Shown: positions 8,563-33,401, counted from the first letter of the stretch. The stretch: DNA of 64,000 nt from a virus (IMGVR_UViG_3300025961_000012:13109-77108), one strand, 5' to 3'. Made by a program: numbers and translations. The notes: a model not told the origin generated them from the letters alone.

Positions 8563-8570
8563 CCGACTTT

Positions 8571-11121: not shown

Positions 11122-11151
11122 TTGCCATCGGTGCCGTGGCGAGCCTACGTT
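11122..11151 (+). promoter_or_regulatory. Putative leaderless promoter for the head operon (TTGCCA-N18-TACGTT-N7-ATG)
   Basis: Hexamers read directly; ATG at 11159; divergent from terL. Confidence 0.5.
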
Positions 11152-11158
11152 GGCGACC

Positions 11159-11437
11159 ATGAACGCACTCGTGATTTCCCAAGAGACTCTGGACGACCAA
11201 CTGCCCCAATGCAAAGACGGTGAGACGGGCGATTTCACGATAAAAGGCGGCACGCTCACAATGGTCCCGGGCGTCGGCGCCGTCGTGTCTGGCGATAACA
11301 TCACCAAATCCGGCTACGAGAACGAGGGCGGCGCCGAGACCGAGGCCGAAGGAGGCATCGAGGAACCCAAGATGTCGCCGGCGGCGATGGCGGTCGTGGG
11401 GCGCAAAGGCGCAGTCGTGGCACGCAGGGGCTACTGA
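11159..11437 (+). CDS. Small acidic hypothetical protein
   Basis: MNALVISQETL...; directly upstream of the portal candidate. Confidence 0.7.
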   Translation: MNALVISQETLDDQLPQCKDGETGDFTIKGGTLTMVPGVGAVVSGDNITKSGYENEGGAETEAEGGIEEPKMSPAAMAVVGRKGAVVARRGY

Positions 11438-18511: not shown

Positions 18512-18544
18512 CCGCTTGACAATTCGATCAGTGATCCGCAGCGT
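18512..18544 (+). promoter_or_regulatory. CCGCTTGACAA-N16-CAGCGT promoter, leaderless to GTG 18553
   Basis: TTGACA 18516-18521, 17-bp spacer, CAGCGT 18539-18544, start codon 8 nt later. Confidence 0.75.
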
Positions 18545-18552: not shown

Positions 18553-19452
18553 GTGAATTATTACAACGAGAACGATCCCAGGGCCGCTGCGTGGCTTCGG
18601 GAATTGATTCGCGCCGGGGAGATTTCAATGGGGGAAGTGGACGAGCGCAGTATAGTCGAAGTCAAAACTCATGAACTCAAAGGATATGCCCAATGCCATT
18701 GGTTTGCCGGAATTGGCGGTTGGTCTCTTGCCCTTCGACTTGCCAGATGGCCCGACGACAAGCCCGTCTGGACAGCCTCGCTCCCATGCCAACCATTCAG
18801 CACAGCCGGGGATCAGCGAGCGGAAGCGGACGAGCGCCACCTCTGGCCAGTGTTCGCCGAGCTTGTTCGGCACGGGCAGCCTTAAATCGCGTTTGGAGAG
18901 CAGGTTGCGAGCAAACTTGGACGTGAATGGCTCGCTGGAGTTCGAGATGATTTGGAAGGAATGGGGTATGAAGTCGGGGCTTCCGATCTGTGCGCTGCGA
19001 GCGTCGGAGCGCCGCACAGACGACAACGGCTCTACTGGGTGGCCCACTCCATCCGCGATCGACTCAGTTCGCGGGGTGGAGTCCAAGGAGGCGCGAAAGG
19101 CACGGGGATCACACACGGGCACGACGTTGAACGATGCGGCAGCAATGGCGCCCTGGCCGACGTGCAGCGCACGGGATTGGAAGGACACGCCGGGAATGGC
19201 GACAACGGGCACGAACCCGGACGGAACGGAGCGAACTCGCCTGGATCAATTGCCGCGAGTCGCAACCCTTGGGATTCCTACGACCTGCTCCCCTGCATCG
19301 ACGGAAAAGCGCGGCGCGTTGAACCCGGAACATTCCCGCTGGCTCATGGGGTACCCGGCCGCGTGGGGCTCCTGCGGGGATACGGGAATAGCATCGTGCC
19401 GCAAATCGCGGAAGTCTTCATCCGTTCCTGTGTCGAAGCCATAGGCATCTGA
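18553..19452 (+). pseudogene. dcm: C5-cytosine DNA methyltransferase (alpha chain) interrupted by an in-frame TAA at 18883-18885
   Basis: FAGIGG (motif I), LPCQPFS (IV), then QP*IAFGEQV (VI) in the same frame, APHRRQRLYWVA (VIII), LRGYGNSIVPQ (X). Confidence 0.85.
18671..19444 (+). CDS. Nested alternative-frame MTase subunit (EcoHK31I beta-like; TRD/motif IX)
   Basis: Intact 257-codon +1 frame with repeated WPTP/WPTC..RDWK boxes and LNPEHSRWLMGYP (motif IX-like, absent from the alpha frame); start may be later. Confidence 0.75.
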   Translation: MNSKDMPNAIGLPELAVGLLPFDLPDGPTTSPSGQPRSHANHSAQPGISERKRTSATSGQCSPSLFGTGSLKSRLESRLRANLDVNGSLEFEMIWKEWGMKSGLPICALRASERRTDDNGSTGWPTPSAIDSVRGVESKEARKARGSHTGTTLNDAAAMAPWPTCSARDWKDTPGMATTGTNPDGTERTRLDQLPRVATLGIPTTCSPASTEKRGALNPEHSRWLMGYPAAWGSCGDTGIASCRKSRKSSSVPVSKP

Positions 19453-19495: not shown

Positions 19496-19894
19496 ATGAT
19501 TCAGTACTTCAAGAAGTATTCGCCACAGCAGGCAATCATCTTCTCCGACGGCAGCGGTTTCAGGGGGTTCCAGCTTGTGAACAACGAGGTCGGGATCCTG
19601 GCTACCGAGGATCCTCGAATCATCCGTGAGATCGAAGCGTGCATCGCCGGCCAACGCGGCGGCGCCGAGAAGATCACATCCGAGGAGTTTCTTTCGTTGC
19701 AGAGTCAAAAAAAAAGCAATTTGCAGCCTCCTTGGAGAGAGGAGTGGCAACCGCGCAAGCTGCCCCCAACAGCGTCAGGCGGCTCCCTCAGCCAGCCAAG
19801 TGCTGCGGTCACTGAGGCGCCGGCGCCGCGGGCTGTGCCGCCGGCGGATGCGGAGAAAAGTTTCAAGCCGAAGACGAGCAAAAGCAAAACGTGA
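19496..19894 (+). CDS. Hypothetical (probably virion/head-associated) protein
   Basis: MIQYFKKYSP...; globular N-terminus and P/A/K-rich tail; coupled to the next gene. Confidence 0.7.
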   Translation: MIQYFKKYSPQQAIIFSDGSGFRGFQLVNNEVGILATEDPRIIREIEACIAGQRGGAEKITSEEFLSLQSQKKSNLQPPWREEWQPRKLPPTASGGSLSQPSAAVTEAPAPRAVPPADAEKSFKPKTSKSKT

Positions 19895-21501
19895 TCACGT
19901 ATGCCTCATTCAGAACGGCGATAAGGCAGGAACTTTGGCCATTCCCCGGCGAGGCAAAGAGCCTCCGGCCAGCGCACGACAAGGCGTTTCTCGAGGCGAT
20001 GATCGCGCTTCAGCGTTGGGTGCCAGAACTGCGCGTCAATCATACGAGCGTGTTTCCGGCCTGTTCGACATACGTGCAGTGCGCGCTGTCGGTTGTTGAG
20101 GCGCCGGTCGGCGAGATCAAGCGGGTTTACACGATCGCGAATGGTGAGTGGTGCGATCGCGTGTTCTACAGCAGCAGAGCACACATGGAGGTGCTCAAGT
20201 GGCAGCGGTGCCTGTTGACGCGGTTCACGTCCCCGGAGAACGTCGGAATGCCGGCGCTCCAGCAGGGATTCAGATTTTCGGAGGCTTCCACGGATTCCCC
20301 CGCGGGACGCGCGCGTGCGGGCATCTGGTCGATCAACCGCAAGCGGTTCCACCTGGCGCCTTGGCTTCAAAGCAATGAATCGCTGGTGATAGAGTGGGAC
20401 GGCGAAAAGAAGGAATGGCTCGACGACGATGTTCTGGACCAGAACTACTTCGACGCCGAAGCGGCGGCCGTCGTGAAGCTTTACGTGCAGAAGTCGCACG
20501 AGCGGGATTTCGGGTGCGACATGGCCAAGATACGGATGCTGGAGCAGGACTACGGGCAGAAGCTCGGCGAACTCATGCACGGCTGGCGGGAGAAGACGCG
20601 CAACCAGGAGAACACGGACGCCGAGGAATTGAACGTGTGCTCGCCGACGAGTGCGGATCTCGCGGACGATGCACCTATGGTTCCCACTGATCAGACGATT
20701 GTCGCCTACATAGCGGACATTGACGGCGGCGCCGCCACTGTCGAAGTGGCGAACTTGGTGAAGTCGTGGGGCCCGGCTTATATCGTGAGCGGCGGCGACA
20801 ATTGGTACGGCAGCGCGATTACGAAGGAAGCTTTGGACGCCTCAGTCGGTCCCAGTTACGGAGATTACATTTTCCCCTACTTGGGCACGCTGGCCACCGG
20901 GGCAGAACGGACGAACGCATTCTTTCCGGCTGTAGGTGACCATGACCGGGATCCCGTCGGCCGGCTGCCGGTGTTCCTGAACTATTTCAACCTGCACAAG
21001 CCGTATTACGATTTCGTCCAGGGGCACGTTCACTGGTTCATCGTGGACAACGGGCTGAACCAGGCTGACGTGCTCGTCCAGGCGGACGGGAACACGTCCA
21101 CCAGCGTGCAGGGCGAGGCGTTTAGGCTGAAAATGGCTCTTTCGACGGCGCGCTGGAAGATTGTCGTCATTGGGGCGCCACCGCACTCTTCCATCAAGGA
21201 GAGCAACACGGCATACGCTGCGCTGCGCTGGCCCTACAAGGCGTGGGGCGCGGATTTGGTGCTGACCGGCGACGATCACCTTTACGAGCGCCTACTGGCA
21301 CCTGAGGGCTATCCGCTCATCGTAGCCGGCTGGAGCGGCCGGGCGCTGGTAGCCAGCGGTTCACCGATCGCCTACAGCCTCGTTCAGTATGACGCGGATT
21401 TCGGGGCGCTGAAGATCACCGTGTCGTGCGACGAGTTCAAGGTCGAGGCGATCAACCGGGTTGGAGTGCTCATCGACACTCTGACGCTGACGAAACCATG
21501 A
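19891..21501 (+). CDS. Fusion of an N-terminal putative head-tail adaptor region and a C-terminal calcineurin-like/purple-acid-phosphatase domain
   Basis: C-terminal motifs IADIDG, GGDNWY, AVGDHD, WKIVVIG, LVLTGDDHLYER follow the PAP layout; N-terminal ~245 aa assigned by position only. Confidence 0.7.
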   Translation: MITYASFRTAIRQELWPFPGEAKSLRPAHDKAFLEAMIALQRWVPELRVNHTSVFPACSTYVQCALSVVEAPVGEIKRVYTIANGEWCDRVFYSSRAHMEVLKWQRCLLTRFTSPENVGMPALQQGFRFSEASTDSPAGRARAGIWSINRKRFHLAPWLQSNESLVIEWDGEKKEWLDDDVLDQNYFDAEAAAVVKLYVQKSHERDFGCDMAKIRMLEQDYGQKLGELMHGWREKTRNQENTDAEELNVCSPTSADLADDAPMVPTDQTIVAYIADIDGGAATVEVANLVKSWGPAYIVSGGDNWYGSAITKEALDASVGPSYGDYIFPYLGTLATGAERTNAFFPAVGDHDRDPVGRLPVFLNYFNLHKPYYDFVQGHVHWFIVDNGLNQADVLVQADGNTSTSVQGEAFRLKMALSTARWKIVVIGAPPHSSIKESNTAYAALRWPYKAWGADLVLTGDDHLYERLLAPEGYPLIVAGWSGRALVASGSPIAYSLVQYDADFGALKITVSCDEFKVEAINRVGVLIDTLTLTKP

Positions 21502-21812: not shown

Positions 21813-22033
21813 GACGCCGGTCATTCTTCAGCCGGATTGCAGGGTTCGTCGCCGCTGTGGAGCATCTGGAATTAAAATCTGTCCAAGTGGCATTTTGGAC
21901 ACAGAACACTCGCTCGTCGAGATGCGTGGATCCTGAATACGAGAAACTTCTCTGTAATCTGGAGAGCCGACCAACATCAGCCCTTAACGTGCCGAATATG
22001 TTCGATTTTCTGAAGGAGCACACCAAGGCATGA
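21809..22033 (+). CDS. Small protein with twin-arginine-like N-terminus and a capsid-derived 18-aa segment
   Basis: MRRRSFFSRIAGFVAAV; VAFWTQNTRSSRCVDPEY vs capsid VLFWVQTFRNSRCVDSEY; coupled at both ends. Confidence 0.7.
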   Translation: MRRRSFFSRIAGFVAAVEHLELKSVQVAFWTQNTRSSRCVDPEYEKLLCNLESRPTSALNVPNMFDFLKEHTKA

Positions 22034-24465
22034 AGTTCGACCAACTCGACAACCAGCCGTGCCTGCTCCCCCAGGTGAACGAGGAATCGTGTGAAAGCAC
22101 GAGGCTACCGGTCCAGGAGGGGCGCCTCGAGCTGCGTCCCGAGGTTGCCGTCGTGGCAGTTCTGGGCACGGTCCAGTATCGAACCTTCCTGATCGCCAAC
22201 GGCGTCGAGCGCGAGGTTACATCCGGGCTCAGCTATCGCTCTGGCAGCACCGTAATCGCAGTCATCGGCGCCATCGGCGGCAATGCGACGGGCATCTCCG
22301 TCGGTATCGTCACGATTTCCGTCGAATGGCAGGGCCTCGAGGCGTTCGGCCAGCTTCAGGTCGTTGACTCCTGCGACAACATTTCGAACGGGCTGGAGAT
22401 CGTCATCGACAACTCGGAGTCGATGAATCAGGCGTTTGGCGCGCCATACGGCACCAAGCTTGATTTCGCGAAGTTCCTCGCCAAACAGTTCGCCGGAGAG
22501 GTCGACGTGCGCAAGGACATCGTTGGGCTGACCACGTTCGCCGTGTCGGGCCAGGTTGTGGCGCCTTTGACGGCCGATAACATCGCCGTCGGGACCGCCA
22601 TCATGGGTGTCGGCTTCGTTCCGGAGCAGACAGACATCCATGCGGGGCTCGAAACGGCCATCGCGGAACTCGCCGCGGCGAACGTCGACCGCCGCGTTAT
22701 CCTGCTGATCACGGACGGCCAGCATAACGACGACATCGAGCCGCTGCAGACGGCACTCCAATTCCGGTCTGGTGGCGGCGTTCTCATTGTCATTGGCCTG
22801 CGCGCCGGCCTGGAGGCTTTCATGCGCCTCGAGAAGCTCGCCAATGGCGGATTCTTTATCTCCGCCTACGACGGCCCGACCGCCGAGGACGCCAAACGTT
22901 ACGTGAGCGGGCTAAAGGGCTATCTGTGCGCCGGCAACTGCTGCCCGGAAGGTGACATCATCGTCGGCCAGGGCAAACTCAACTACGAGGATTGGCTCAA
23001 CTGGGATAACATCGGCAACGTCGATCTGATTGGAAACGGTTTTTACGACCTTATCCCCGGGCACGGTCTGTTCGTGGATCTCGTGGGAAGCTCGGCGCCA
23101 TGGCAGGGCGGGTTAATCAGCAAGAAATCGTTCACGTTCCAAAACGGCGTCAACTACAAGCTGAGTTACAAACTGGCCGGCAATCAGCGCGCGGACGCCA
23201 CGGGCTACTCGGTCAAGGTCAATGCCGGCAGCGTCGCGACCGCCACGCACGCGATGAACGATTGGCGCCAGGACTTTACGACCTACGACTTGAGTTTCTT
23301 GGGCGATGGCACTTCCGGCCAACTGATCTTCATCCAGGAAACGGTCTCGCCTGCGCCGGCGGCTCAAGCCTTCGGGGTTTTGCTTGATGACGTCACGCTC
23401 ATCAACGATGACACGGACGAAATTCTGTTCACCGAAAGTTTCGACAACGAGAATCTGACTTACGTGCCGCCCGCTTGCGGCATGGGCACAGTCTACGGAC
23501 AGGGTTACGGTGGCGGTTACGCCTACGGGACGTGCTGCTACGGTTACGGGTGCCTGGCTGAACCGGTCAAACAGCAGAACCCGGATCCCATGCCGCCAAC
23601 GGATCCCGAGACGGAGCCCGATCCGTTCTGGATCAGCACGCAGTCCTACACGGCAAGCTGCCCCGTTGGAACCACGGGCGCCGACGTGACACGCTCGGCG
23701 AGCTACAAGAGTTTCATCAGCGCGGCCGATGCCAACGCAAAAGCCCTGGCGCTGGCTCAGACCGCAGCCGAGGCGGCGCTGAACTGTGTGAGCCCGCCCG
23801 TCAACGGCGATCTCATCAACATGCACGCCATCCGCGGCAGGCATACGACAAAGATAGGCTTTGCCGCATTCGGAAAGACGTCCGGCGACGTCTGGAACGC
23901 ATGGAGCGCCTCCGATTACAACAACGATACCCTGTTGAAATCGGACGGGACCGCCTCCTTCGTCACCATCCGAAAGTGTGAAGTCGGCGATTTCACGCAA
24001 ACGGACCTTGTCGCCGTCAATTTCGATGTGTCGCTCGACCATCCGGACGCCATGTACAAGATGGGCCAGGCGTTCTATCGCAACGATTCGATCACGCCGA
24101 AAGACGAGGCGCTGTTCTTCGACGGATTACCCGAAGGCAATTATGAGGTCTACGTTTACGGCCACGGCGCTGACAACGCGCTGCAGGTCGGCCATTACCA
24201 GGTTCGCACCGGTAAACTCACAGGAGATCTGGCATCTGGATTCGTGCTCGATCCTTTCACCAACACCGTTTACCCAACGCTCGACACGTCGAACACGGAC
24301 AGCTACCTCGACACCGCCTGGGCTGAAAACGTCCAGTTCGTGAAATACTCAGTCACGATCGGCGCAGGGCAGACCGGCATCTGCATCATTTCCGCCAGCG
24401 CATCCGGCGTGGATCCCGGGCGAATCAGCGTGCTCATGGGCGTGCAGATTCACAGAGTGCCATAA
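22030..24465 (+). CDS. vWA (MIDAS) domain virion/adhesin protein with Ig-like and carbohydrate-binding-like modules
   Basis: IVIDNSESM (DxSxS), TDIHAGL, VILLITDG; flanking beta-rich and Cys-rich modules. Confidence 0.8.
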   Translation: MKFDQLDNQPCLLPQVNEESCESTRLPVQEGRLELRPEVAVVAVLGTVQYRTFLIANGVEREVTSGLSYRSGSTVIAVIGAIGGNATGISVGIVTISVEWQGLEAFGQLQVVDSCDNISNGLEIVIDNSESMNQAFGAPYGTKLDFAKFLAKQFAGEVDVRKDIVGLTTFAVSGQVVAPLTADNIAVGTAIMGVGFVPEQTDIHAGLETAIAELAAANVDRRVILLITDGQHNDDIEPLQTALQFRSGGGVLIVIGLRAGLEAFMRLEKLANGGFFISAYDGPTAEDAKRYVSGLKGYLCAGNCCPEGDIIVGQGKLNYEDWLNWDNIGNVDLIGNGFYDLIPGHGLFVDLVGSSAPWQGGLISKKSFTFQNGVNYKLSYKLAGNQRADATGYSVKVNAGSVATATHAMNDWRQDFTTYDLSFLGDGTSGQLIFIQETVSPAPAAQAFGVLLDDVTLINDDTDEILFTESFDNENLTYVPPACGMGTVYGQGYGGGYAYGTCCYGYGCLAEPVKQQNPDPMPPTDPETEPDPFWISTQSYTASCPVGTTGADVTRSASYKSFISAADANAKALALAQTAAEAALNCVSPPVNGDLINMHAIRGRHTTKIGFAAFGKTSGDVWNAWSASDYNNDTLLKSDGTASFVTIRKCEVGDFTQTDLVAVNFDVSLDHPDAMYKMGQAFYRNDSITPKDEALFFDGLPEGNYEVYVYGHGADNALQVGHYQVRTGKLTGDLASGFVLDPFTNTVYPTLDTSNTDSYLDTAWAENVQFVKYSVTIGAGQTGICIISASASGVDPGRISVLMGVQIHRVP

Positions 24466-24468
24466 ACG

Positions 24469-24501
24469 CCGCTTGACAATGCCAGTTGGGTTTCACAGCA
24501 T
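24469..24501 (+). promoter_or_regulatory. CCGCTTGACAA-N16-CAGCAT promoter for the glycan cassette
   Basis: TTGACA 24473-24478, 17-bp spacer, CAGCAT 24496-24501, GTG 9 nt later. Confidence 0.75.
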
Positions 24502-24510
24502 CCGCCCCCA

Positions 24511-25254
24511 GTGACTTCATTCAGACATGCTGGCGACCTCGGCGACATCATTTATTCCCTTCCGGCCGTGCGCCATTTTGGCGGCGGCGATTTCCATATC
24601 GAGGCGGCGGAGTTCACGCGCGTTTGCCTGACTCCGAACAGATGGTGTGGCATCGACAGGCTTCTGGCCGTACAGCCATACATCACCAGCGTGCGCTCCT
24701 ATCGCGTCGGCGAGTATTGCACGTTCAATTTGAACTCGTTCAGGGCGCCGCTGAACGCCGCACTTCGCAAGCATGAACAAACGGACAAGAGCCTTTGCGA
24801 TTGGGTTTTGGAAACGCACAACGTTCCTCTGACCGCGAAGGAAACTCCATGGCTCACCGTCGTTCCGAAGACTGTTGCGCCGGTCGTCATCAATCGCACG
24901 GGCGCCGGACGAACGCGCAACGCCTGCTATCACAATTTCAAATTTCCGTGGCACAAAGTCTGGAAGAAATACGGACGTGACGCGGTGTTCATCGGGACGT
25001 GGGCAGAGTACGAGATGTTTTGCGGATCGTGCGGCGAGGTGCCGTATCACGAGACGAAGGATCTGCTCGAGGCCGCGCAGGTGATTGCCGGCGCCAAACT
25101 GTTCGTAGGGAACCAGAGCGTCTGCCACGCGATTGCCCAGGGCTTGTTTCAGCGTGTCCTGCTCGAAGTCTGGGTTGAGGGCGCCAATTCGACGTTCCTG
25201 CGTGAAGGCGTGACGAATGGTTTCGATGAGAAGGTGGAGTTGCCTGAAATATGA
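24511..25254 (+). CDS. GT9/ADP-heptose:LPS heptosyltransferase-like glycosyltransferase
   Basis: HAGDLGDIIYSLPAVR N-terminal motif and LLEAAQVIAGAKLFVGNQS..HAIAQGL C-terminal motif of the GT9 (WaaC/WaaF) type. Confidence 0.7.
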   Translation: MTSFRHAGDLGDIIYSLPAVRHFGGGDFHIEAAEFTRVCLTPNRWCGIDRLLAVQPYITSVRSYRVGEYCTFNLNSFRAPLNAALRKHEQTDKSLCDWVLETHNVPLTAKETPWLTVVPKTVAPVVINRTGAGRTRNACYHNFKFPWHKVWKKYGRDAVFIGTWAEYEMFCGSCGEVPYHETKDLLEAAQVIAGAKLFVGNQSVCHAIAQGLFQRVLLEVWVEGANSTFLREGVTNGFDEKVELPEI

Positions 25255-25667
25255 AGGAGAAAACCGTTCTCGTTACTGGTTGCTTCGACGTGCTCCACCG
25301 CGGGCATATTGAGCTTTTGTATATCGCCGCCGAACACGGAAAAGTCGTTGTGGGCATCAATGACGACGAGAGTGTTCAAAAACTCAAGGGACCGAAAAGG
25401 CCCGTGAATAATGAGGAGGACAGGCTGTTTCTGATAGAAGCACTTGGCAGCGTGACCTACGGGTTCATCATTTTCGACGTGAAAGTGGACAAGGCGATCA
25501 TGGACATCAAGCCGGACATTTGGATGAAAGGCGGCGATTACACGATGGAAACTCTGAACAAGGACGAGGTTGAGGCTGCGCGGAATGTTGGAGCGGAGAT
25601 CATCATTATTCCAACGTGCAAGGGCTATTCGACAACCGAGACACTCAAGAAACTGGAGGCAGAATGA
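25251..25667 (+). CDS. RfaE/HldE domain II-like sugar-phosphate nucleotidyltransferase
   Basis: TGCFDVLHRGH (HxGH), VVGINDDESVQKLKGPKRPVN, IKPDIWMKGGDY, GYSTT. Confidence 0.85.
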   Translation: MKEKTVLVTGCFDVLHRGHIELLYIAAEHGKVVVGINDDESVQKLKGPKRPVNNEEDRLFLIEALGSVTYGFIIFDVKVDKAIMDIKPDIWMKGGDYTMETLNKDEVEAARNVGAEIIIIPTCKGYSTTETLKKLEAE

Positions 25668-26173
25668 GCGAAACAGCCAAACACCGCGATCAGGTCGCGG
25701 AATTCACTGTGGGCAACGGCGTGGACCTTGGATCTTCCGGCGACGGGATCGTGCCATGGGCCATCCAGGTTGACCTGCCGAGCGACGAATATCTCCGCTA
25801 CAACCCGAAGCGCCCGCAGGATGCGATACACTGGCGCGGCAGCGCGCTTCACCTGCCGTTTCAGGATCGGGTGCTCGACTTCGTGCATAGCTCTCATCTC
25901 CTCGAGGACTTTGAGGACTGGGGACCGATACTCAAGGAATGGGATCGGGTGCTGAAGGTCGGCGGTTACATGATCATCGCCGTGCCGGACCACGCCCGGT
26001 TCCGCGCGGCCGTTGCCCTCGGGCAAGGTGACAATCTCAATCACAAGCACGAGTCCCACGTCGGCGAGCTGCCAAAGTATCTTCACACCTACAGGACTCT
26101 CGTTGACCGGTTTGTGAGCAGCGACCCAAACGAGTATTCGATCCTCTATGTCGGCGTCAAAAATCCCGTATGA
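25664..26173 (+). CDS. Class I SAM-dependent methyltransferase (Methyltransf_11-like)
   Basis: VDLGSSG motif I, LPFQDRVLDFVHSSHLLED, EWDRVLKVGG; ATG at 25664. Confidence 0.8.
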   Translation: MSETAKHRDQVAEFTVGNGVDLGSSGDGIVPWAIQVDLPSDEYLRYNPKRPQDAIHWRGSALHLPFQDRVLDFVHSSHLLEDFEDWGPILKEWDRVLKVGGYMIIAVPDHARFRAAVALGQGDNLNHKHESHVGELPKYLHTYRTLVDRFVSSDPNEYSILYVGVKNPV

Positions 26174-26892
26174 AAGCACAAGTCATCACCGTCTCCAGCC
26201 ACGATCCCGTCCAGTCCTATTATCACTTCGGCGCCTTCAAAAAGAGCCTGGCGCGCTTCGGCGTTGAACCGACCATCCTTGGCCCGGGGGAACCATGGCG
26301 CGGCCTGATGACCAAACCGCGGCTTCTGCAAAAGTTTTTGAGCGAGAGCCGGCATAAAAGCGACAACATCATCGTGACTGACGCATGGGACATCATCTTC
26401 ACCGCGCATCCCGACGAGGTGTGGGCGGCGAAGGAGTTCGATGCACCGGACGCCGTCATGTTCAACGCCGAGATGGGTTGCTTCCCGCGGGCTGATCTGG
26501 CTGATCGATTCCCGGATCCGGGCACCCCTTACCGATTCCCGAACTCCGGGTTCATGGCGGGCACGGCGAGTCAAATCCTCGCAATCCTCGACAGCATGAA
26601 TCTGAATGCCATTCGGGACGACACGCAGGAGCCCGACGGATCATGGTTCAATCCGAACGATCAGGAGTATTACACGCTGGCGTTCCTCCAGCAGCCGGTG
26701 AAGATGGTTCTGGATACGCACGCGCGCGTTTGTCAGTCATTCTCTGGAAGTGCGCTCAGCGATTACGTCCTAGTCGATGAGGGTCGCGTCACAAACAAGC
26801 GTACGGGTTGCAAACCACTCGTTTGGCATTTCAACGGGAACTCGAAGAACGACATTTTGCCTGAACTCCTGAAGCACAACCACCTTGCATGA
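26170..26892 (+). CDS. GT-A glycosyltransferase resembling the procollagen lysyl hydroxylase (PLOD/LH3) GT domain
   Basis: IVTDAWDIIF, MFNAE.GCFP, RFPNSGFMAG, DQEYY, LD...CQ, HFNG motif series. Confidence 0.75.
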   Translation: MKAQVITVSSHDPVQSYYHFGAFKKSLARFGVEPTILGPGEPWRGLMTKPRLLQKFLSESRHKSDNIIVTDAWDIIFTAHPDEVWAAKEFDAPDAVMFNAEMGCFPRADLADRFPDPGTPYRFPNSGFMAGTASQILAILDSMNLNAIRDDTQEPDGSWFNPNDQEYYTLAFLQQPVKMVLDTHARVCQSFSGSALSDYVLVDEGRVTNKRTGCKPLVWHFNGNSKNDILPELLKHNHLA

Positions 26893-27428
26893 ACCTCCTC
26901 ACGCTCACTGGTAAAATCAACGTCCAGGGCTTCCTCCACGAAGCCGAGATGGAAAAGCTTGTCGAGCTGGGCATCAACAAGGACGTGCTCGAGGTGGGCA
27001 GCTTCATGGGCCTGTCGGCCTACTGCTTTGCCATCGCCGCCAAGAGCGTCATGTGCGTGGACACGTTTTCCGCCAACACAGCCGGCCAGCAGCAGATGGA
27101 GACACTTCAGACGCTCGCCGCGTTCGACGAAGCCGTCGCCAGGTTCGCCAACGTGAAACGCTTCGTCGGGACGTCCGAACGGGCGGCAGGGTTTTACGGC
27201 ATCCCGGGTCAGTTCGATCTCGTGTTCCTCGACGCCATGCACACCTATGAGGACGTCAAAGCAGACATCGATCGCTGGTGGCCGCGGGTTCGTAACGGCG
27301 GGACGATGGCCTTTCACGACTATCGGCACGACCATTTCCCAGGCGTCGAAAAGGCGGTCGACGAGAAGTTTGGACCGGCGCCCGACGGCACGACGATTGG
27401 AACCTTGAGGTGGATCGAGAAAAAGTGA
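26889..27428 (+). CDS. Class I SAM-dependent methyltransferase (Methyltransf_24-like)
   Basis: VLEVGSFMGLS, FDLVFLDAMHTYEDVKAD...W..V..GG..AFHDY. Confidence 0.85.
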   Translation: MNLLTLTGKINVQGFLHEAEMEKLVELGINKDVLEVGSFMGLSAYCFAIAAKSVMCVDTFSANTAGQQQMETLQTLAAFDEAVARFANVKRFVGTSERAAGFYGIPGQFDLVFLDAMHTYEDVKADIDRWWPRVRNGGTMAFHDYRHDHFPGVEKAVDEKFGPAPDGTTIGTLRWIEKK

Positions 27429-27440
27429 CAGTGTGGCAGG

Positions 27441-28919
27441 GTGAAAGCGCCGATTTGCCTGATCACGCCACCGTCTTGCTTCCTCATGGATGAGCGGGTT
27501 TTCGTGTCGCTGGGTATACTGAAAGTGGCCGCCTGTCTGGAACAGGCCGGGCATCCCGTTGAGATGGTGGACCTGTCCGGCATCCAGAATTTCGAAGATT
27601 GCATGCGCGATCACGCCGGCCAAAGCCCTTGTTCAACGTTTGGGATCACCGCCACCACGCCCCAGATGCCCGCGGTAATGAAGATCGCGACGGCAATTCG
27701 AGCGACTCGCCCGGACGTTCGAATCATCCTCGGAGGCCCCCATGTCACGCTCGTCAACGCTGCGCTCAAGCGCGAGCGCAAGATTGGCGCCCAAGGCAGG
27801 GCGACGCGCGCGTTCGCGAAGTTGCTCGAGGCGTTCGACGTGCTGGTTTGCGGGGACGGCGAGGACGCCATTTTCGCCGCAATTGTTCCCGAGCCAGAAA
27901 AGGTCATCGACGCGGACGATCCGAAATCGGCGCTCTGGATGACAAACGACCGGCTCAACGAGCTTCCGTTCCCGGCCCGGCATCTGGTGGACATGAGCAG
28001 TTATCACTACACCATCGAAGGAGAGCGTAGCTTGAGCCTTATCGCGCAATTAGGGTGTCCGTTTTGCTGCACGTTCTGCGGCGGCCGCGAATCGCCGATG
28101 CTGCGCAGGATCCGCACGCGCACCACGGAGAACATCATCAAAGAGGTTTTGCACCTGCACCAAGACTACGGCGCCCGCGGGTTCATGTTCTATGACGACG
28201 AATTGAACGTGAACCCCAGCATGATCGAACTCATGCACGGGCTGCGGTTCGCCCAGGACCTGGCTCAAGGAGAGTTCAAGATGCGCGGGTTCATCAAATC
28301 CCAGCTTTTCACGGACGAACAGGCGGATGCGATGTATGGCGCCGGGTTCCGCTGGATCCTCGTCGGGTTCGAGAGCGGGTCCGAGCGCATCCTGACGAAC
28401 ATCAAAAAGAAGGCGAACCGGGCGGAGAACACCCGCTGCATGGAAATCGCCAAACGGCACGGGCTGAAGGTCAAGGCGCTGATGTCAGTCGGGCACGCTG
28501 GCGAGAGCGAAGAGACGATCGAGGAAACCCGGCAGTGGTTGCTCGAGGTGAAGCCCGACGACTTCGACGCGACGGTCATCTCGGTTTATGCTGGCACCCC
28601 GTACCATGACTTCGCGCGAGAGACCAAGCCGAACATCTGGACCTACACGAGCGAGAACGGGGACCGCTTGCACAGCTTCGAGATGGATTACTCCGAGGAC
28701 GCCGGTTACTACAAAGGCAAAATCGGAGAGTATCAGTCCTACGTGTTCACCGATTTTCTGAGCCCGGAGCGGCTCGTCGAGCTGCGAGACAATCTGGAGA
28801 CGAGCGTGCGCGAGAAGCTCGGGATTCCATTCAACCAGTCGGCGGCGTCGATACAATACGAACATTCGATGGGTCAGCCCGGCAACCTTCCCCGCCACAT
28901 TCTCAGACGTAGCGCATGA
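27441..28919 (+). CDS. Cobalamin (B12)-binding radical SAM enzyme (class B methyltransferase-like)
   Basis: N-terminal B12-binding domain (SLGILKVAA, GITATT, IILGGPHVT, GDGE), GCPFCCTFC CxxxCxxC, FYDDELN, VGFESGSERIL. Confidence 0.9.
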   Translation: MKAPICLITPPSCFLMDERVFVSLGILKVAACLEQAGHPVEMVDLSGIQNFEDCMRDHAGQSPCSTFGITATTPQMPAVMKIATAIRATRPDVRIILGGPHVTLVNAALKRERKIGAQGRATRAFAKLLEAFDVLVCGDGEDAIFAAIVPEPEKVIDADDPKSALWMTNDRLNELPFPARHLVDMSSYHYTIEGERSLSLIAQLGCPFCCTFCGGRESPMLRRIRTRTTENIIKEVLHLHQDYGARGFMFYDDELNVNPSMIELMHGLRFAQDLAQGEFKMRGFIKSQLFTDEQADAMYGAGFRWILVGFESGSERILTNIKKKANRAENTRCMEIAKRHGLKVKALMSVGHAGESEETIEETRQWLLEVKPDDFDATVISVYAGTPYHDFARETKPNIWTYTSENGDRLHSFEMDYSEDAGYYKGKIGEYQSYVFTDFLSPERLVELRDNLETSVREKLGIPFNQSAASIQYEHSMGQPGNLPRHILRRSA

Positions 28920-29908
28920 AAATCGGAATCTTTCTATCAAGCCTAGGCGGAAGCCCCCTGCAGGCCGGGCTGGAGCGTGGGTTTGTCCAGTTGGGGCATG
29001 AATTGGTGGACGGCGGGAAGCCGTGCGATCTGCTCGTTGTTTTCAATCAAACAGCTCATGATCCGTCGTATTGCTACCCCGGCTTTCCGGACCATACCGG
29101 GCCGATGGCGTTCATCGACTGCGCGGAGTATGGGTATTTCAGGCGACTGCCAGGCATCGTTGGCCATTATTGGAACGCATTCGCCGCGGGCTCAATGGTT
29201 CACGACACGAAGAACGTCGTGCAGCAGACACGGTTGAAGAACTGGCTCGAGGGAAGGAGCTTCCCTTACTTCATTCGCGAGTTCAGCAAGCACGTCGTTT
29301 TCCCGATCAACTATCACCCGATCGATTACCCGCTTTATTACCACAGCGAATGCCACCAGAAGCCGGACCGCGAGGAGTATTTGAAGCGCGAACTCGACCT
29401 GTTCGTGAGCTGGGGGGCGAGTCATCCCTGGCGGATGCAGATCACGCAGGCGCTGCGGGATTGCCACACGCGCTGCGAAATCTTGGTCCTCGAGGAGAAC
29501 GGGACGCCGCGGATGCGGCAGCGTGATTTCTTCCAGCGCACGCGCGCGGCGAAGTGCTCGGTGTCGTTCGACGGTTACGGGTCGTCGTCCTTCCGGCTGC
29601 ACGAGGTGCTTGTGCGATGCCTGCTGTTGGCCGGACCCATGAGCATTGACCGTTACGCCCCGCTGGTGGACGGGGTGCATTTCATGGAATACGCGGTCGA
29701 TGCGGTCGGCGAGGATTTCGTTGGGACGAACGTGTGCAAGGTGCTTCGGCAGGCGCTGGCGGACCCGGAGGGAAGCTTTCGGATGTACGACGCGGGTTAC
29801 AGACATTGCATGGAGCACTACACCGAAAAGGCGACCGCCGAATACGTCCTGCGCACCGTCGAGGCGCACGACTGGACGAAGGTAACGCCGCTTGACAATC
29901 CTGCGTGA
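28916..29908 (+). CDS. GT-B glycosyltransferase-like protein (CgeB/Glyco_trans_1_2-like)
   Basis: RELDLF.SWG.SHPWR, FFQRTRAAKCSVSFDGYG..SFRLHEVL, PLVDGVHFMEY, YRHCMEHYT. Confidence 0.7.
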   Translation: MKIGIFLSSLGGSPLQAGLERGFVQLGHELVDGGKPCDLLVVFNQTAHDPSYCYPGFPDHTGPMAFIDCAEYGYFRRLPGIVGHYWNAFAAGSMVHDTKNVVQQTRLKNWLEGRSFPYFIREFSKHVVFPINYHPIDYPLYYHSECHQKPDREEYLKRELDLFVSWGASHPWRMQITQALRDCHTRCEILVLEENGTPRMRQRDFFQRTRAAKCSVSFDGYGSSSFRLHEVLVRCLLLAGPMSIDRYAPLVDGVHFMEYAVDAVGEDFVGTNVCKVLRQALADPEGSFRMYDAGYRHCMEHYTEKATAEYVLRTVEAHDWTKVTPLDNPA

Positions 29909-29920
29909 GCGCGGCAGCGT
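29888..29920 (+). promoter_or_regulatory. CCGCTTGACAA-N16-CAGCGT promoter, leaderless to ATG 29928
   Basis: TTGACA 29892-29897, 17-bp spacer, CAGCGT 29915-29920, ATG 7 nt later. Confidence 0.75.
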
Positions 29921-29927
29921 CACAGCC

Positions 29928-30206
29928 ATGAACGACGCGACGGACGAAGCTCCGATTCCATCCCTCCCGATTCTTTCCGAAGAAGAAACGTTGAAGCAAC
30001 CTCGTCAATACCTGAGCCGCTATTGCCCGTCGTGTGGATTCAAGGGTTGTTTCCGCGTCCCTGACGGTCTTTATCTCATAGCGGCACAACTCCACTGTGA
30101 GAGATGCGGACGATCCACTCGCGCCAAACTTAAATGGGACACGGGTTTGCTTCGCAGGATCTGGTGGTGGATCCGATGCCGCCATACCCGAATCAATTTA
30201 GGATGA
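29928..30206 (+). CDS. Small Zn-ribbon protein (CPSC...CERC)
   Basis: Start set by the promoter spacing; coupled to the GT4 gene. Confidence 0.65.
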   Translation: MNDATDEAPIPSLPILSEEETLKQPRQYLSRYCPSCGFKGCFRVPDGLYLIAAQLHCERCGRSTRAKLKWDTGLLRRIWWWIRCRHTRINLG

Positions 30207-31255
30207 AACGCCTCACGTTGGTTGCCAGCATCGACAACGCGACCGGCTACGGTCTGCACGCGATCCAGATCGTGCGCGACATCGAGCGGTTGACAGGCGC
30301 GCACGTTGCCATCCGGCCGATCCAGCAGAAGCAGATGTTTGGATCGAACATCCCGACCGACATTCGGCAGCGGTTCGTCAACGGCCCGCAGCCCGAAGAG
30401 TGGGAGCTTGTCCTGTCGCCACCATACTTCCGACCGACGCCCGGGAAGAAAACCGCCTACTTTTCGATGTGGGAAGCGACACGGCTCCCTCCCGGCGGCG
30501 CCGCGGTCCTGAACCTCGCCGAGATCGTCATCGTGCCGACGTCCTGGGGCGCCTCGTGCTTCTCGGCGTCAGGCGTGGATCGTACGATGAGGATCGTGCC
30601 GCTGGGCATCGACGACAAGGTTTTCCACTTTCGCGCGCAGAGCTTGGCCAGCGAGCCTGCGAAGGCTGGAGTGCGCGCCGTGTTCGGGACTGCCGGCCGC
30701 ATGTCCCACGGCGGGATCCGAAAGGGCATCAACGAGGTAATCGACCTGTTCCAGCGTGCGTTCCCGACGGAGGGCGACGTCCTGTTGCGCGTGAAAGTTC
30801 ACCCTGACTGCCCGGTGACGCGACTGTCCGACCCGCGCATCGAGATCAAAGCAGCGCACCTGCCCGACGAGCAGCTCGCCGACTGGTTCTCGGCGCTGAC
30901 GTGCTTCGTATCGGGCGCCCGCGGCGAGGGCTGGGGGCTGTTCCAACAGCAGGCGATGGCCACCGGGCGCCCGGTCGTCGCCGCGCGCTTTGCCGGCCTG
31001 GCCGACTTCCTGACGCCGGATAACGGTTTCTGTGTGCCGTTCGTCCTCGGGGCGGCAGAACAGGCGTACGCGGGCTGCGGGCACTGGGCATGGCCGTCTG
31101 ACCAAGGGTTCATCGAGGCGATGCGCACGATCTATCGCGAGCCGCACCTCGCCGCGGCCAAAGGCGCCCAGGCGTCGAAGGACGTCGCGCACCTGACGTG
31201 GGAGAACTCGAACCTACGGTTGATTGATGTATTACAAGAAGTGGGGGCACTATGA
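30203..31255 (+). CDS. GT4 family glycosyltransferase
   Basis: MWEAT, IVPLGID, RKGINEVI, FVSGARGEGWGL..QQAMATGRPVV; start MKRLTL at 30203. Confidence 0.9.
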   Translation: MKRLTLVASIDNATGYGLHAIQIVRDIERLTGAHVAIRPIQQKQMFGSNIPTDIRQRFVNGPQPEEWELVLSPPYFRPTPGKKTAYFSMWEATRLPPGGAAVLNLAEIVIVPTSWGASCFSASGVDRTMRIVPLGIDDKVFHFRAQSLASEPAKAGVRAVFGTAGRMSHGGIRKGINEVIDLFQRAFPTEGDVLLRVKVHPDCPVTRLSDPRIEIKAAHLPDEQLADWFSALTCFVSGARGEGWGLFQQQAMATGRPVVAARFAGLADFLTPDNGFCVPFVLGAAEQAYAGCGHWAWPSDQGFIEAMRTIYREPHLAAAKGAQASKDVAHLTWENSNLRLIDVLQEVGAL

Positions 31256-31566
31256 CCAGTTTCATTGACGGTCCCGCGAAAGGTCAGCATTTGATGCTGA
31301 AGCGGGCGGCGCGGTTCATTCGCGTCGTCGATGAGGTTGGCAAGTGGGACGCCCTCGATCAGCCGGAAGACACGCCAAAGGCGACGGAGAAGATTTACGC
31401 CTACCAGGTTCACGGCGATGTCAGAGCCTGCCACATCAATAGAGGCGGAGGTCGGGGCGGGTTTTATCCAATCGCGGAGTATCGTTTTATCGTCGATCAG
31501 CCGGACGATGCGACGATGCGCGACGCTGATCGATGGCGGGCTTGGTGTGAAGCCCGAAAACCTTGA
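31252..31566 (+). CDS. Hypothetical protein (104 aa)
   Basis: FIDGPAKG N-terminus; coupled to the GT4 stop. Confidence 0.75.
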   Translation: MTSFIDGPAKGQHLMLKRAARFIRVVDEVGKWDALDQPEDTPKATEKIYAYQVHGDVRACHINRGGGRGGFYPIAEYRFIVDQPDDATMRDADRWRAWCEARKP

Positions 31567-31569
31567 TGC

Positions 31570-31824
31570 TTGCCTCAGAGCCCGTTCGGCGGTAGTACGG
31601 GCGCAATGGCCGCCACCATTCCGCCGAAACCCTCAGAGTTTGCTGCCGTCGTGGTTGAACCCACGGACACGCTCGCCGTGGCGTTCGTCAAAGTCTTCAT
31701 CCGCTTCCCGGTCTTGCTGTTGCGCTGGTACATGGCCTGGTACAATGCCGACGGCTCGTTCACGACCGAGTTCAAGACGAAACTCTGTGCCGGATGGGCT
31801 GATTGCCCGGAGGAAACCGCCTGA
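31570..31824 (+). CDS. Small protein paralogous to the N-terminal domain of the next gene
   Basis: WYMAWYNADGSFTTEFKTKLC vs WYSYVYNEDLSFTDDFKADLC. Confidence 0.7.
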   Translation: MPQSPFGGSTGAMAATIPPKPSEFAAVVVEPTDTLAVAFVKVFIRFPVLLLRWYMAWYNADGSFTTEFKTKLCAGWADCPEETA

Positions 31825-33401
31825 TGCCTACGCCAGTTTCGCCGTCTGAAATTAAATCCACTATCCCGTCCGCGAGCGGCAGCTTTTGCGCGAAGTTCCT
31901 TCAGGTGCTGCAACTCCCGAAACTGTTTTCGACCTGGTACAGCTACGTTTACAACGAGGATCTGTCCTTCACGGATGACTTCAAAGCCGATCTCTGTCTC
32001 GTGCGATGCACATGCAGCGGCGGGGGCAGCACTCCGCCCGACGGTGGCGTCCCTGGCGGACCGATCGCGCCGACCAACGTTCAGGCCACGGACGGCGCAT
32101 TCAGCACGAAGGTCGTCGTCACATGGAATTCGGTGACGGCCGCCACGAGCTACGAGATCTTGCGCGGTACAGTGAACGATTTCTCGATGGCGACCGTCAT
32201 CGGCACGACGACGGGCAATCTGGTGGTGACTTTCGAGGACACGGCCGTCACGGAGGCGCAGGTCTACTACTACTGGGTGCGCGCGTATAACGGCACGCTC
32301 CGCGGGGCGTCCAGTTCTCCGGATACCGGCTACGCTGTCGGCGCTTTGTCAGCGGTCACGGATCTCAAGGCCAGCCGCGGGTTCTACCAGTCGACCGTGA
32401 CTGGGCTCACGACCGGGACAGGCACGATCGCGCTCGTGTTCACGGCCGCTTCTGGCGCCAATGCCTACGACATCTATCGCGGCACTACCAACGTGTTCTC
32501 GGCGGCAACGAAGATCGATTCGAACCGAATGCCGTTCGATACTTCCAGGAAGACAACGCAATGCGTTCCTACCCCATGCACAAGTCCGATTTTCGTGAAT
32601 AACGGCGGGCATTTGTTGTATTACGACAAACCGGCGAGCATCGCCCAAAAGTATTACTACTGGGTCGTCGCCAAGATGGTTTCCGGGTCAATCGTGCAGT
32701 CGGTTTCTGAGGCTTCGAACACTGCGTATGGCTGGATCGTCCTCGACAGCACGGCCGGCACGCAGGTTCTGGGCTACGACATCGTTGCCCATGCCTCGCC
32801 CGTCCCGAACTCGAGGACAAGGGCCTACGTCGTCCTTGTTGGGCCAACGGCCGGCGGCGCCGGCGGCAACGACTCGTTTGGGGGTGGTGGTGGCGGCGGC
32901 GGGGCGATCATCGCTGGCTACTTCAACATGGTGGCGGGCCCCAACCGTCGCTGGAAAATGATCACGAGTTCGGTCGCCGGCGGGGCGTCGGCAGCCAACG
33001 GGACCGATTCGATCGTCGCTGAACTTCAATATGACGACGGCGGCGGCATTTTTGCCACAATCCTGGACACCTCGATTGCCGGCAAAGGTCTGTGGAATGC
33101 CGGTGGCGGCGGCGCCGGCGGCGCCGGGTCAGTCGGCTCTGTAATCGGAGCGGTGACCGATCCCGAGACCGAGCCCGGGTTCGCGGGGGAAGCCGCGTCC
33201 GGAACGTTTGGCGGCCGCGGCGGATGCGATTTCGGGTTCCTGCGGTCAAACCCTCACAACTTCCCGAACGCGTTCAACATCACCACGGAGACGACCAGGT
33301 TAACCCAGGGCGGCGGCGGTTCGGATGCGCTGCCTGGCGCCGGGGCCTCCGCCGATGGCGGCATCGGGTCGACCGGTTACGCAATCATCGTCTATTTCTG
33401 A
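31824..33401 (+). CDS. FN3-domain and glycine-rich tail fibre-like protein
   Basis: Two FN3-like repeats (APTNVQAT...VTWNSV..ATSYEILR...YYYWVRAYN) and a Gly-rich C-terminal domain; ATG at 31824. Confidence 0.75.
   Translation: MPTPVSPSEIKSTIPSASGSFCAKFLQVLQLPKLFSTWYSYVYNEDLSFTDDFKADLCLVRCTCSGGGSTPPDGGVPGGPIAPTNVQATDGAFSTKVVVTWNSVTAATSYEILRGTVNDFSMATVIGTTTGNLVVTFEDTAVTEAQVYYYWVRAYNGTLRGASSSPDTGYAVGALSAVTDLKASRGFYQSTVTGLTTGTGTIALVFTAASGANAYDIYRGTTNVFSAATKIDSNRMPFDTSRKTTQCVPTPCTSPIFVNNGGHLLYYDKPASIAQKYYYWVVAKMVSGSIVQSVSEASNTAYGWIVLDSTAGTQVLGYDIVAHASPVPNSRTRAYVVLVGPTAGGAGGNDSFGGGGGGGGAIIAGYFNMVAGPNRRWKMITSSVAGGASAANGTDSIVAELQYDDGGGIFATILDTSIAGKGLWNAGGGGAGGAGSVGSVIGAVTDPETEPGFAGEAASGTFGGRGGCDFGFLRSNPHNFPNAFNITTETTRLTQGGGGSDALPGAGASADGGIGSTGYAIIVYF

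Follow-up and report, generated by a model that had tools for sequence, protein, structure and literature searches.

We describe a putative glycan-synthesis cassette in an uncultured soil phage, located at positions 24469–31255 of a 64,000-nucleotide stretch of DNA (hereafter, the window) that corresponds to bases 13109–77108 of a 77,108-bp IMG/VR virus record (IMGVR_UViG_3300025961_000012) rated 98% complete. Five further rhizosphere-metagenome DNA runs match at least 0.5 of the sampled words of 24469–31255, and the share in a 2025 soil DNA run was 0.38. Judging by its gene content the phage is temperate, since Pfam identifies a tyrosine integrase on the - strand at 59875–60711; a terminase-like gene is found at 9524–11209. 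Nine co-directional open reading frames (ORFs) on the + strand, which we call g1 to g9, occupy 24511–31255. In the ORF list, ATGA-type overlaps of 4 nt join g1/g2, g3/g4, g4/g5, g6/g7 and g9/g10, and revised start codons add overlaps of the same length at g2/g3 (ATG 25664) and g8/g9 (ATG 30203). A first-pass annotation of the sequence had proposed a translationally coupled cassette lying between a vWA protein and the tail genes. This arrangement is borne out by the co-directional ORFs and their overlaps, by a Pfam VWA match upstream and by a PHROG tail-fibre match downstream.

Pfam, applied at its gathering cut-offs, places six of the cassette genes (g2, g3, g4, g5, g6 and g9). The g2 gene (25251–25667) encodes a 138-aa predicted sugar-phosphate nucleotidyltransferase that resembles domain II of HldE. 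It matches CTP_transf_like (PF01467) with 61.6 bits against a cut-off of 21 and carries HRGH, an HxGH motif, at residues 16–19, which places it in the PF01467 nucleotidyltransferase superfamily. Its best NCBIfam model is TIGR02199 rfaE_dom_II (E 4.9e-36), at a score of 123.7 bits that lies below the equivalog cut-off of 181.5, and it also matches phrog_7878 (E 3e-22). The g3 product (25664–26173) is a predicted class I S-adenosylmethionine (SAM) methyltransferase (Methyltransf_11, 41.4 bits). We revised its start to ATG 25664, over the g2 stop, based on a reading of the DNA at 25651–25667, where GGAGG lies 5 nt upstream; from residue 15 on, the protein is 60% identical to its homologue in the viral contigs L003 and L068. 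A second predicted SAM methyltransferase, of the Methyltransf_24 family (PF13578, 64.7 bits), is encoded by g5 (26889–27428), which also matches phrog_2675 (E 5e-17), a family labelled DNA methyltransferase in PHROGs. Two SAM methyltransferases are therefore present as first annotated, but calling them O-methyltransferases overstates what these matches say.

Between them, g4 (26170–26892) encodes a predicted PLOD/LH3-type (collagen-type) glycosyltransferase (GT) of the GT-A fold, matching PF25342 GT_PLOD with E 3e-28 and 99.1 bits against a cut-off of 27. Its matches in the PDB are the LH3 GT domain (6wfv, E 1.9e-14) and mimivirus R699 (9dyt, E 6e-13). TDAWD in g4 aligns with VDSYD of LH3, an acidic metal-binding motif whose residues we take to be catalytic. 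Near the end of the cassette, g8 (29928–30206) encodes a small protein that reads as zinc-ribbon-like from its two CxxC pairs (CPSC...CERC). Its sole profile match is a sub-threshold Pfam hit to Cys_rich_KTR (16.7 bits); the ORF was listed with a TTG start at 29892, and ATG 29928 is likelier. The g9 gene (30203–31255) encodes a predicted GT4 glycosyltransferase, with Glyco_trans_1_4 (PF13692) at 31.7 bits (cut-off 27), PF00534 at 22.7 bits (below its cut-off of 26.4) and phrog_2170 at E 7e-20. The PHROG alignment begins at residue 24, and the most likely start is ATG 30203, over the g8 stop, in agreement with the onset of both the PHROG and the homologue alignments. Proteins 26–28% identical to g9 are found among the GTs of 133 deposited phage records, 132 of them actinophages. 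A tenth ORF, g10 (31252–31566, + strand), encodes a 104-aa protein that overlaps g9 by 4 nt and has no match in PHROGs or NCBIfam; its membership in the cassette is uncertain. It is itself overlapped by a 172-aa ORF at 31331–31849 that is rich in Arg and Ser (32 K+R against 8 D+E) and is probably not a gene.

The g6 gene (27441–28919) encodes a protein with an N-terminal B12-binding domain (PF02310, 52.8 bits) followed by a radical SAM domain (PF04055, 88.7 bits). A CX3CX2C motif at residues 206–213 (C206/C210/C213) is invariant in 19 homologues. By these domains and this motif g6 is a class B (cobalamin-dependent) radical SAM enzyme, with cobalamin binding predicted. No named equivalog was reached: all 18 NCBIfam models that g6 matched, including HpnJ, HpnR and PhpK, scored far below their cut-offs, the best being the PhpK family with 116.5 bits against 600. 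In the PDB, the family profile matched the diol-dehydratase AprD4 (6fd2, E 1e-20), radical SAM protein 9ccb (E 8e-20) and a tryptophan C2-methyltransferase (6wte, E 4e-8). Because its nearest solved relatives include AprD4, a methylase role for g6 is likely but not established, and the earlier description of this enzyme holds for its class B type while going too far on methylation. Among 50,697 deposited phage records, the only match to g6 was a partial one at 27% identity in Streptomyces phage SF3.

The two remaining genes lie beyond the reach of the curated families. The 330-aa product of g7 (28916–29908) had no match in Pfam, PHROGs or NCBIfam, and neither single-sequence nor profile searches of the PDB gave anything significant. 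Its ESM Atlas model, with a predicted template-modelling score (pTM) of 0.81, has TM scores of 0.67–0.74 to clusters dominated by Glyco_trans_1_2, RXYLT1_C, Exostosin GT47 and GT90. This one model-based source would make g7 a GT-B-like protein with a Glyco_trans_1_2/RXYLT1/GT47-like fold. We found 251 homologues of g7, and the 120 listed are 55–100% identical to it, the 100% match being the window's own protein. A g7 profile found no relative in 185,579 species genomes, and g7 has no counterpart in the deposited phage records.

The 247-aa product of g1 (24511–25254) likewise had no match in Pfam, PHROGs or NCBIfam. It does not reach the 22-bit cut-off of PF01075 (GT9), which finds nothing in the entire genome at E<=10 and matches only 1 of 45 members of the g1 family (E 0.0084). 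A link to GT9 emerged from family-profile alignment with hhalign: the g1 family profile (A1) aligned with a GT9 protein of Nitrospira moscoviensis (L177:5826–6860) at 93.2% and E 3.1e-7 over 120 columns. The comparator is a bona fide GT9 of 345 aa, matching PF01075 with E 2.3e-47 at the same genome coordinates. The alignment spans only g1 residues 100–226, which is the C-terminal, donor-binding half. By these alignments g1 is a short, remote relative of the GT9 donor-binding domain and, by the curated test, not a member of the family. PDB searches with g1 gave nothing significant, whether with the single sequence or with the A1 profile, which found nothing below E 0.8; across the g1 and g7 searches the best PDB matches had E-values of 0.19, 0.82 and 1.5. 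ESM Atlas holds no g1 model, and the look-alikes of g1 are viral hypothetical proteins. The gene identities first proposed thus stand for g2 to g6 and g9 by Pfam and for g8 by its CxxC pairs, while g1 is only a remote GT9 relative and g7 is GT-B-like only by the ESM Atlas model.

The g1 family is large and rich in viral members. A word-indexed search returned 167 homologues at E<=1e-3, many of them on contigs of 75–78 kb, and a profile of 45 homologues matched 3,398 clusters at E<=1e-3 among 1.84 billion representatives, 1,689 of them at E<=1e-30. None of the 50,697 deposited phage genomes contains a match. In ten long members of the family, the g1-like domain is fused to GT2, GT4, PLOD-GT, FkbM/Methyltransf_11/25, DUF5672 or true GT9 domains. 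We considered and rejected the GT9 matches of three such long proteins as evidence of what g1 itself is, as they proved in a local hmmsearch to be separate, adjacent domains that the g1 profile touches only faintly (i-E 0.047–0.12). One member, P0253 (865 aa), carries an intein (Hint_2, Intein_splicing, LAGLIDADG_3) between its g1-like and Methyltransf_11 domains. At 74 other viral loci with a g1-like ORF, other GT or methyltransferase genes lie within three ORFs in 23 cases, and a terminase-like cluster, whose representative matches a PHROG terminase large subunit, does so in 12.

We also examined how the cassette might be transcribed, as it had been described as lying behind its own promoters. 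A generic sigma-70 scan of 12 kb does not support this, since it stays at chance level (3 sites against 3.0 expected) and places no site ahead of the cassette. What does support it is a genome-specific 12-mer containing a perfect TTGACA, which precedes both g1 and g8. With one mismatch or fewer allowed, nine copies occur in the window against 0.43 expected, a count that none of 100 shuffles matched; they lie at 2025–2050, 6790–6801, 18512–18523, 24469–24480, 29888–29899, 57138–57149, 61253–61264 and 63038–63049. Genome-wide there are 11 copies, two being in the first 13 kb of the record. Six of the 11 have an nAnnnT hexamer exactly 17 nt 3' of the 12-mer (background 4.4% per position), and in five of these six an ORF of at least 92 aa starts 7–12 nt past the hexamer. 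The orientation of the 12-mer agrees with that of the downstream genes, the left-facing copies with a hexamer being those at 6801, 61264 and 63049. The copy at 18512 precedes a region with a C5 DNA-methylase match. In the first element ahead of the cassette (24469–24501, + strand), the 12-mer is followed by a 17-nt spacer and CAGCAT, with the GTG of g1 9 nt further. The second (29888–29920, + strand) lies inside the 3' end of g7, with the ATG of g8 7 nt past its CAGCGT. These sites look like real promoters, of a phage promoter class with very short leaders that would give near-leaderless mRNAs, and the cassette probably consists of two transcription units, g1–g7 and g8–g10. If the promoters are real, these two units are of the same class as those of the non-structural genes. 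No terminator-like site on the + strand was found within the cassette, the sole one in the 12 kb scanned being at 22838, inside the vWA gene.

The cassette is flanked by genes for virion morphogenesis. Upstream lies an 811-aa vWA-domain protein of the morphogenesis block (22030–24465, + strand; VWA 46.2 bits and VWA_2 44.2 bits in Pfam), and downstream a tail-fibre-like protein (31803–33401, + strand; phrog_19394, E 2e-9; phrog_496 tail fibre, E 5e-8). The downstream flank also encodes a virion structural protein by PHROG match. Both anchors are syntenic with the cassette in L093 (a 78-kb complete record) and L104, which are distant members of the lineage whose structural proteins are 26–38% identical to those of this phage. 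In all three, the order p493, p627, p536, vWA, cassette, tail fibre, vs770 is kept. At this site L104 carries a GT4 gene, g1 and a 227-aa ORF, and L093 carries g1 and six other ORFs; a 521-aa protein of the L093 cassette gave nothing in a PDB search. In this sample of the lineage, which amounts to three genomes and a near-identical fragment (probes with vWA alone and with p536 gave one and two loci), g1 is the constant element of the cassettes at the vWA/tail-fibre site.

A different part of the cassette is found in unrelated phages. L002, L003 and L068 have in common with this phage only g3, g4, g5, g6 and g7, at 45–65% identity, and nothing else within 10 kb. In L068 a terminase large subunit gene precedes this block by about 2.5 kb; for two other proteins flanking the block in the unrelated phage, deposited phages gave no match. 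L003 and L068 each carry the PLOD-type GT as a tandem pair (8038–8715 and 8780–9463).

Some features of the block around the cassette are recorded here in their own right. Residues 76–94 of the vWA protein form a Gly-zipper-like hydrophobic stretch with the top hydropathy of the block (1.76), and the same protein has a weak Pfam match to DUF5977. A 536-aa protein of the morphogenesis block (19891–21501) carries metallophosphoesterase-like motifs (GDxG, GDNxY, GNHD and GHxHxYER) in its C-terminal half, which are invariant in three lineage members; it matched no Pfam family at E<=0.001. Two further genes, at 58597–59223 and 61525–62439, had been annotated as GT-like, a label that finds no support here, as neither has a Pfam match at E<=0.001.

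We next consider the context in which relatives of g6 are found. Homologues 39–65% identical to g6 occur at no fewer than 79 viral-contig loci. A tblastn search of these 79 loci for the remaining cassette genes (E<=1e-5) gave matches as follows: g2 at 12, g5 at nine, g4 and g9 at four each, g3 and g7 at three each, and g1 at one. The 1,699 ORFs of the loci were clustered, and one representative of each of 20 recurrent neighbour clusters was scanned. GDP-mannose dehydratase/epimerase was found with 49 members in 35 loci, alongside GT4, GT2, GT10, GT11, DegT aminotransferase, UDP-glucose dehydrogenase, cytidylyltransferase, PfkB kinase, cupin, NeuB, and FkbM and Methyltransf_24 methyltransferases. 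The neighbours also include gp32, dCMP deaminase and one cluster without a profile match.

In species-representative genomes, the g6 profile found 403 relatives, the best 80 of which are 61–66% identical to g6. Most of these 80 belong to Nitrospirales, the N. moscoviensis chromosome among them, and to Elusimicrobiota; the others include metagenome-assembled genomes of Acidobacteriota, Omnitrophota and Akkermansia. Apart from one g2-like and one g3-like match, no other cassette gene lies near them. We tallied the two ORFs upstream and two downstream at 30 loci (the 33 of 80 with full flanks, minus three in which the g6 relative was missed by ORF calling). Among the resulting 120 ORFs were 17 of GT4 type, 14 Glyco_trans_1_2, nine asparagine synthases (AsnB-type), nine GT2, five GDP-mannose dehydratases, four FkbM, two Bac_transf and two GT9. 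In N. moscoviensis (L177, approximately 3.317–3.329 Mb), the g6 orthologue lies about 1.1 kb from a GT9 gene, with two more GT9 genes within about 10 kb. Because g6 relatives are found amid sugar-pathway genes at viral and bacterial loci alike, g6 is predicted to have a sugar or glycan as its substrate in either setting. The suggestion that the cassette makes and decorates a glycan is supported by these neighbourhoods, by the gene families present and by the fusions of g1-like domains to GT and methyltransferase domains.

Altogether, the cassette is most likely a functional phage operon of soluble cytoplasmic enzymes that builds and tailors a glycan. As we picture it, g2 would activate a host-supplied sugar-1-phosphate to a nucleotide sugar, with heptose-1-phosphate as the best guess. 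Four GTs of different folds (GT9-like g1, PLOD-type GT-A g4, GT-B-like g7 and GT4 g9) would then assemble a short hetero-oligosaccharide, to be tailored by the SAM methyltransferases g3 and g5 and by g6, which may C-methylate it or perform another radical sugar rearrangement. As acceptor we propose at least one virion protein encoded by the phage itself, to which the glycan would be added in the cytoplasm while particles are being assembled or earlier; the outcome would resemble the glycan coats of mycobacteriophages, chloroviruses and mimiviruses. The cassette had also been called self-contained, a description that fails: PfkB, SIS_2, Bac_transf and GtrA (GtrA_DPMS_TM) have no match at E<=1 in the whole 77-kb record, so the sugar-1-phosphate and any lipid-carrier or export step must be derived from the host. 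The cassette proteins contain no convincing membrane segment (maximum 19-residue Kyte-Doolittle mean <=1.73). Soluble proteins and the lack of Bac_transf and GtrA together point to cytoplasmic chemistry without lipid-carrier machinery of its own.

Virion, host lipopolysaccharide (LPS) and DNA were all named in the first-pass annotation as possible targets of the glycan. Our analysis disfavours DNA, leans towards the virion and keeps the envelope alive. We tentatively favour virion proteins, a target we regard as quite possible, for four reasons. First, two unrelated lineages retain the cassette at its site in morphogenesis modules. Second, the PLOD-type GT family acts on proteins, LH3 and mimivirus R699 being the solved relatives of g4. 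Third, all of the cassette enzymes are soluble. Fourth, the GT-GT-methyltransferase fusions of the g1 family parallel A064R of chlorovirus PBCV-1. A bolder version of this idea is that the cassette represents an uncharacterised and very large system of uncultured phages, in which virion proteins are coated with a heptose-containing oligosaccharide that is O-methylated and carbon-modified by a B12 radical SAM enzyme, with the g1 family as the protein-directed initiating transferase. We consider this version, taken as a whole, unlikely. If true, it would be a first for virus particles: a glycan tailored by a radical SAM enzyme.

Several observations weigh against a virion target. No acceptor protein emerged, a search for collagen-like repeats giving only a single run of five triplets. 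Within three ORFs of g1, genes for single-stranded DNA-binding protein (7 of 74 viral loci), integrase (4) and primase (4) are also found. Non-structural units towards the integrase end carry the promoter-like 12-mer of the cassette too, so the cassette may not be a late gene set. In a sister strain, represented by two other runs and the IMG/VR contig L081, positions 24468–24763 are swapped for approximately 1.4–1.6 kb that lacks the g1 copy of the 12-mer, and the remainder of the cassette is kept at about 98–99% identity. The swap (L081:12437–13803, flanked by 97% identity upstream and 93% downstream) removes the vWA/g1 junction and the first ~84 codons of g1; it brings in a 223-aa ORF and a Gly/Val/Arg-rich repetitive stretch. 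The junction looks like a moron-like recombination hot-spot.

The last two of these points, the common 12-mer and the variable junction, would also suit a second hypothesis, namely that the cassette modifies the host envelope. At the cytoplasmic face, its soluble GTs would modify host lipid A-core or lipid-linked intermediates of O-antigen or exopolysaccharide, and host machinery would export the altered, methylated glycan; the change would block superinfection or keep progeny off debris, as lysogenic or lytic conversion. Here g1 and g2 count against the virion, as they resemble LPS-core enzymes (g1 by its homology to the GT9 donor domain, g2 by its best match to HldE domain II). So do the bacterial g6 orthologues, at 61–66% identity, which sit in surface-polysaccharide or LPS-type clusters flanked by the GT4, AsnB-type, GT2, GDP-mannose dehydratase, Bac_transf and GT9 genes listed above, including the three GT9 genes of N. 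moscoviensis. The phage is temperate, with the integrase at 59875–60711, and the available parts of published accounts read similar islands as host O-chain modification (PMC7029224) or in the same general sense (PMC12801897). Other evidence speaks against the envelope. Neither GtrA, an initiating phosphoglycosyl transferase nor a membrane protein was found in the GtrA and Bac_transf searches or by hydropathy, so that the cassette does not resemble a serotype-converting gtrABC-type or O-antigen-modifying module, with its membrane components (GtrA flippase, bactoprenol GT, polytopic GT or acetylase). Classical seroconverting systems include genes for membrane proteins. The acceptors known for the PLOD-type GT family are proteins; the site inside the morphogenesis block is kept across deep divergence and recurs in the head module of an unrelated phage; and no + strand terminator insulates the cassette. 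On balance we regard envelope modification as possible but rather doubtful.

A third hypothesis is that the GTs add a tailored mono- or oligosaccharide to a hydroxylated pyrimidine in DNA, allowing escape from restriction, on the model of phage GT clusters that add hexose, N-acetylhexosamine (HexNAc), heptose or Kdo to 5-hydroxymethylcytosine (5hmC). According to the available portions of the reports on such clusters (Pyle et al., bioRxiv 10.1101/2023.12.21.572611; Lee et al. 2026, PMC13326640), a cytidylyltransferase-like enzyme acts there with a GT-B enzyme, heptose is among the sugars, and the clusters may neighbour structural genes; a trio of cytidylyltransferase, GT-B and HAD/APH enzymes has been reconstituted to give heptosyl-5hmC (Pyle et al.). 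The string "gt9" that occurs in this preprint, as far as the available text allows us to judge, is probably the enzyme name GT94 and not family GT9. The phage itself has a C5-cytosine DNA-methylase match (PF00145, 51.4 bits, profile positions 65–161) at 18769–19047, in an open frame broken by one TAA and preceded by the same 12-mer as g1 and g8, and the PHROG of g5 bears a DNA methyltransferase label. However, the published clusters, in the portions we could consult, need a C5 methyltransferase and 5mYOX pair or a thymidylate synthase homologue, and here neither 5mYOX nor a thymidylate synthase homologue was detected. No generator of a hydroxylated base was found: Thymidylat_synt (PF00303) has no match at E<=1 in this 98%-complete genome, and neither has Tet_JBP (PF12851), a weak negative because the control never rose over the cut-off. 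Among 40 g1-bearing viral records, thymidylate synthase is present in one (canonical, E 1.6e-100, in a 353-kb phage) and Tet_JBP in none, with the same weakness in the control. The g6 orthologues, moreover, reside in polysaccharide clusters. DNA is the least supported of the three targets, and we consider it very unlikely.

It is more improbable still that the product is a free or lipid-bound small glycoconjugate, secondary-metabolite-like or signalling, that decorates nothing: among solved structures g6 is closest to AprD4, an enzyme of apramycin biosynthesis, its NCBIfam relatives include HpnJ, HpnR and PhpK, and a cyanophage radical-SAM/DegT pair is read as "antibiotic synthesis" in the accessible part of one source (PMC12801897), but the cassette encodes four GTs of different folds and no aglycone-forming enzyme, and the context of g6 is of polysaccharide type at the viral loci and the 30 bacterial ones.

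How does a virion-directed cassette compare with known systems? In mycobacteriophages, phage GT genes place glycans on capsid and tail-tube subunits (Freeman et al. 2023, as related in the accessible parts of PMC12619734 and PMC12801897). As far as those sources go, both systems rely on phage-encoded GTs that are soluble cytoplasmic enzymes, in the present case by prediction. The cassette differs in adding a nucleotidyltransferase, a PLOD-type GT and a B12 radical SAM enzyme. It differs too in its relatives, as g1 and g7 have no homologue, and g6 only its 27% partial match, among the deposited phage records, and only g9 has actinophage relatives, at 26–28% identity. Cultured Streptomyces phages carry a nucleotidyltransferase and four GT genes near the portal gene.

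A closer parallel in layout is the "host recognition cluster" of pelagimyophages and cyanomyophages (Zaragoza-Solas et al. 2020, PMC7029224), a hypervariable island in the structural region beside tail-fibre genes that contains GTs, rfaE-type genes and swappable radical-SAM cassettes. Its function is given as untested in the sections available, with host O-chain modification favoured by the authors. From the same sections, those islands span 34–45 kb in T4-like marine myophages, whereas ours is an operon of 6.8 kb, and the temperate soil phage that carries it has a 77-kb genome and belongs to a different lineage. In chloroviruses and mimivirus (PBCV-1 A064R/A061L and mimivirus L230/R699; PMC9614988, seen in part), viral cytoplasmic GTs and SAM O-methyltransferases produce a methylated capsid glycan. 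A064R combines two GT domains with an O-methyltransferase domain and acts on the capsid glycan, and L230 glycosylates a viral collagen-like protein (same source). Multi-domain GT-GT-methyltransferase fusions as in the g1 family, and a PLOD-type GT acting on a viral protein, are thus features in common with these viruses. The differences are that they are eukaryotic giant viruses with, to the extent that the source covers it, no radical-SAM step, and that g4 has neither a lysyl-hydroxylase partner nor a collagen-like substrate that we could find. Finally, the bacterial LPS inner-core heptose pathway (HldE domain II and the GT9 enzymes WaaC/WaaF) is echoed in g2, whose best model is rfaE_dom_II, and in g1, which aligns to the donor-binding half of GT9. 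Against this, g2 falls below the equivalog cut-off, g1 is only 247 aa long and unseen by PF01075, and there are no GmhA- or HldA-type genes.

Phage islands of GT, rfaE and radical-SAM genes beside tail fibres (PMC7029224, in the sections available) and mycobacteriophage virion glycans are thus already in print. A literature search for cobalamin-dependent radical SAM enzymes with phage polysaccharide or GTs, and for PLOD GTs with bacteriophage or collagen, did not find this combination of enzymes described in phages. What is new is the particular enzyme set, along with the fact that its three most conserved families (g1, g7 and g6) are without counterpart in deposited phages, save for the partial SF3 match of g6.

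Where phage particles bear a coat of glycans, it influences how they are recognised by the immune system and probably also host-range and defence interactions; to our knowledge such coats have so far been shown only for a few actinophages. The operon described here links three abundant uncharacterised families, the GT9-like g1, the GT-B-like g7 and the class B radical SAM g6, to phage morphogenesis modules, and does so in a compact nine-gene set that is usable for reconstitution. Should the envelope prove to be the target, the cassette would convert the cell surface by means of soluble enzymes, in contrast to the membrane-bound gtr type. Once the reaction of g6 is identified, hundreds of surface-polysaccharide loci in bacteria and islands in viruses could be annotated together.

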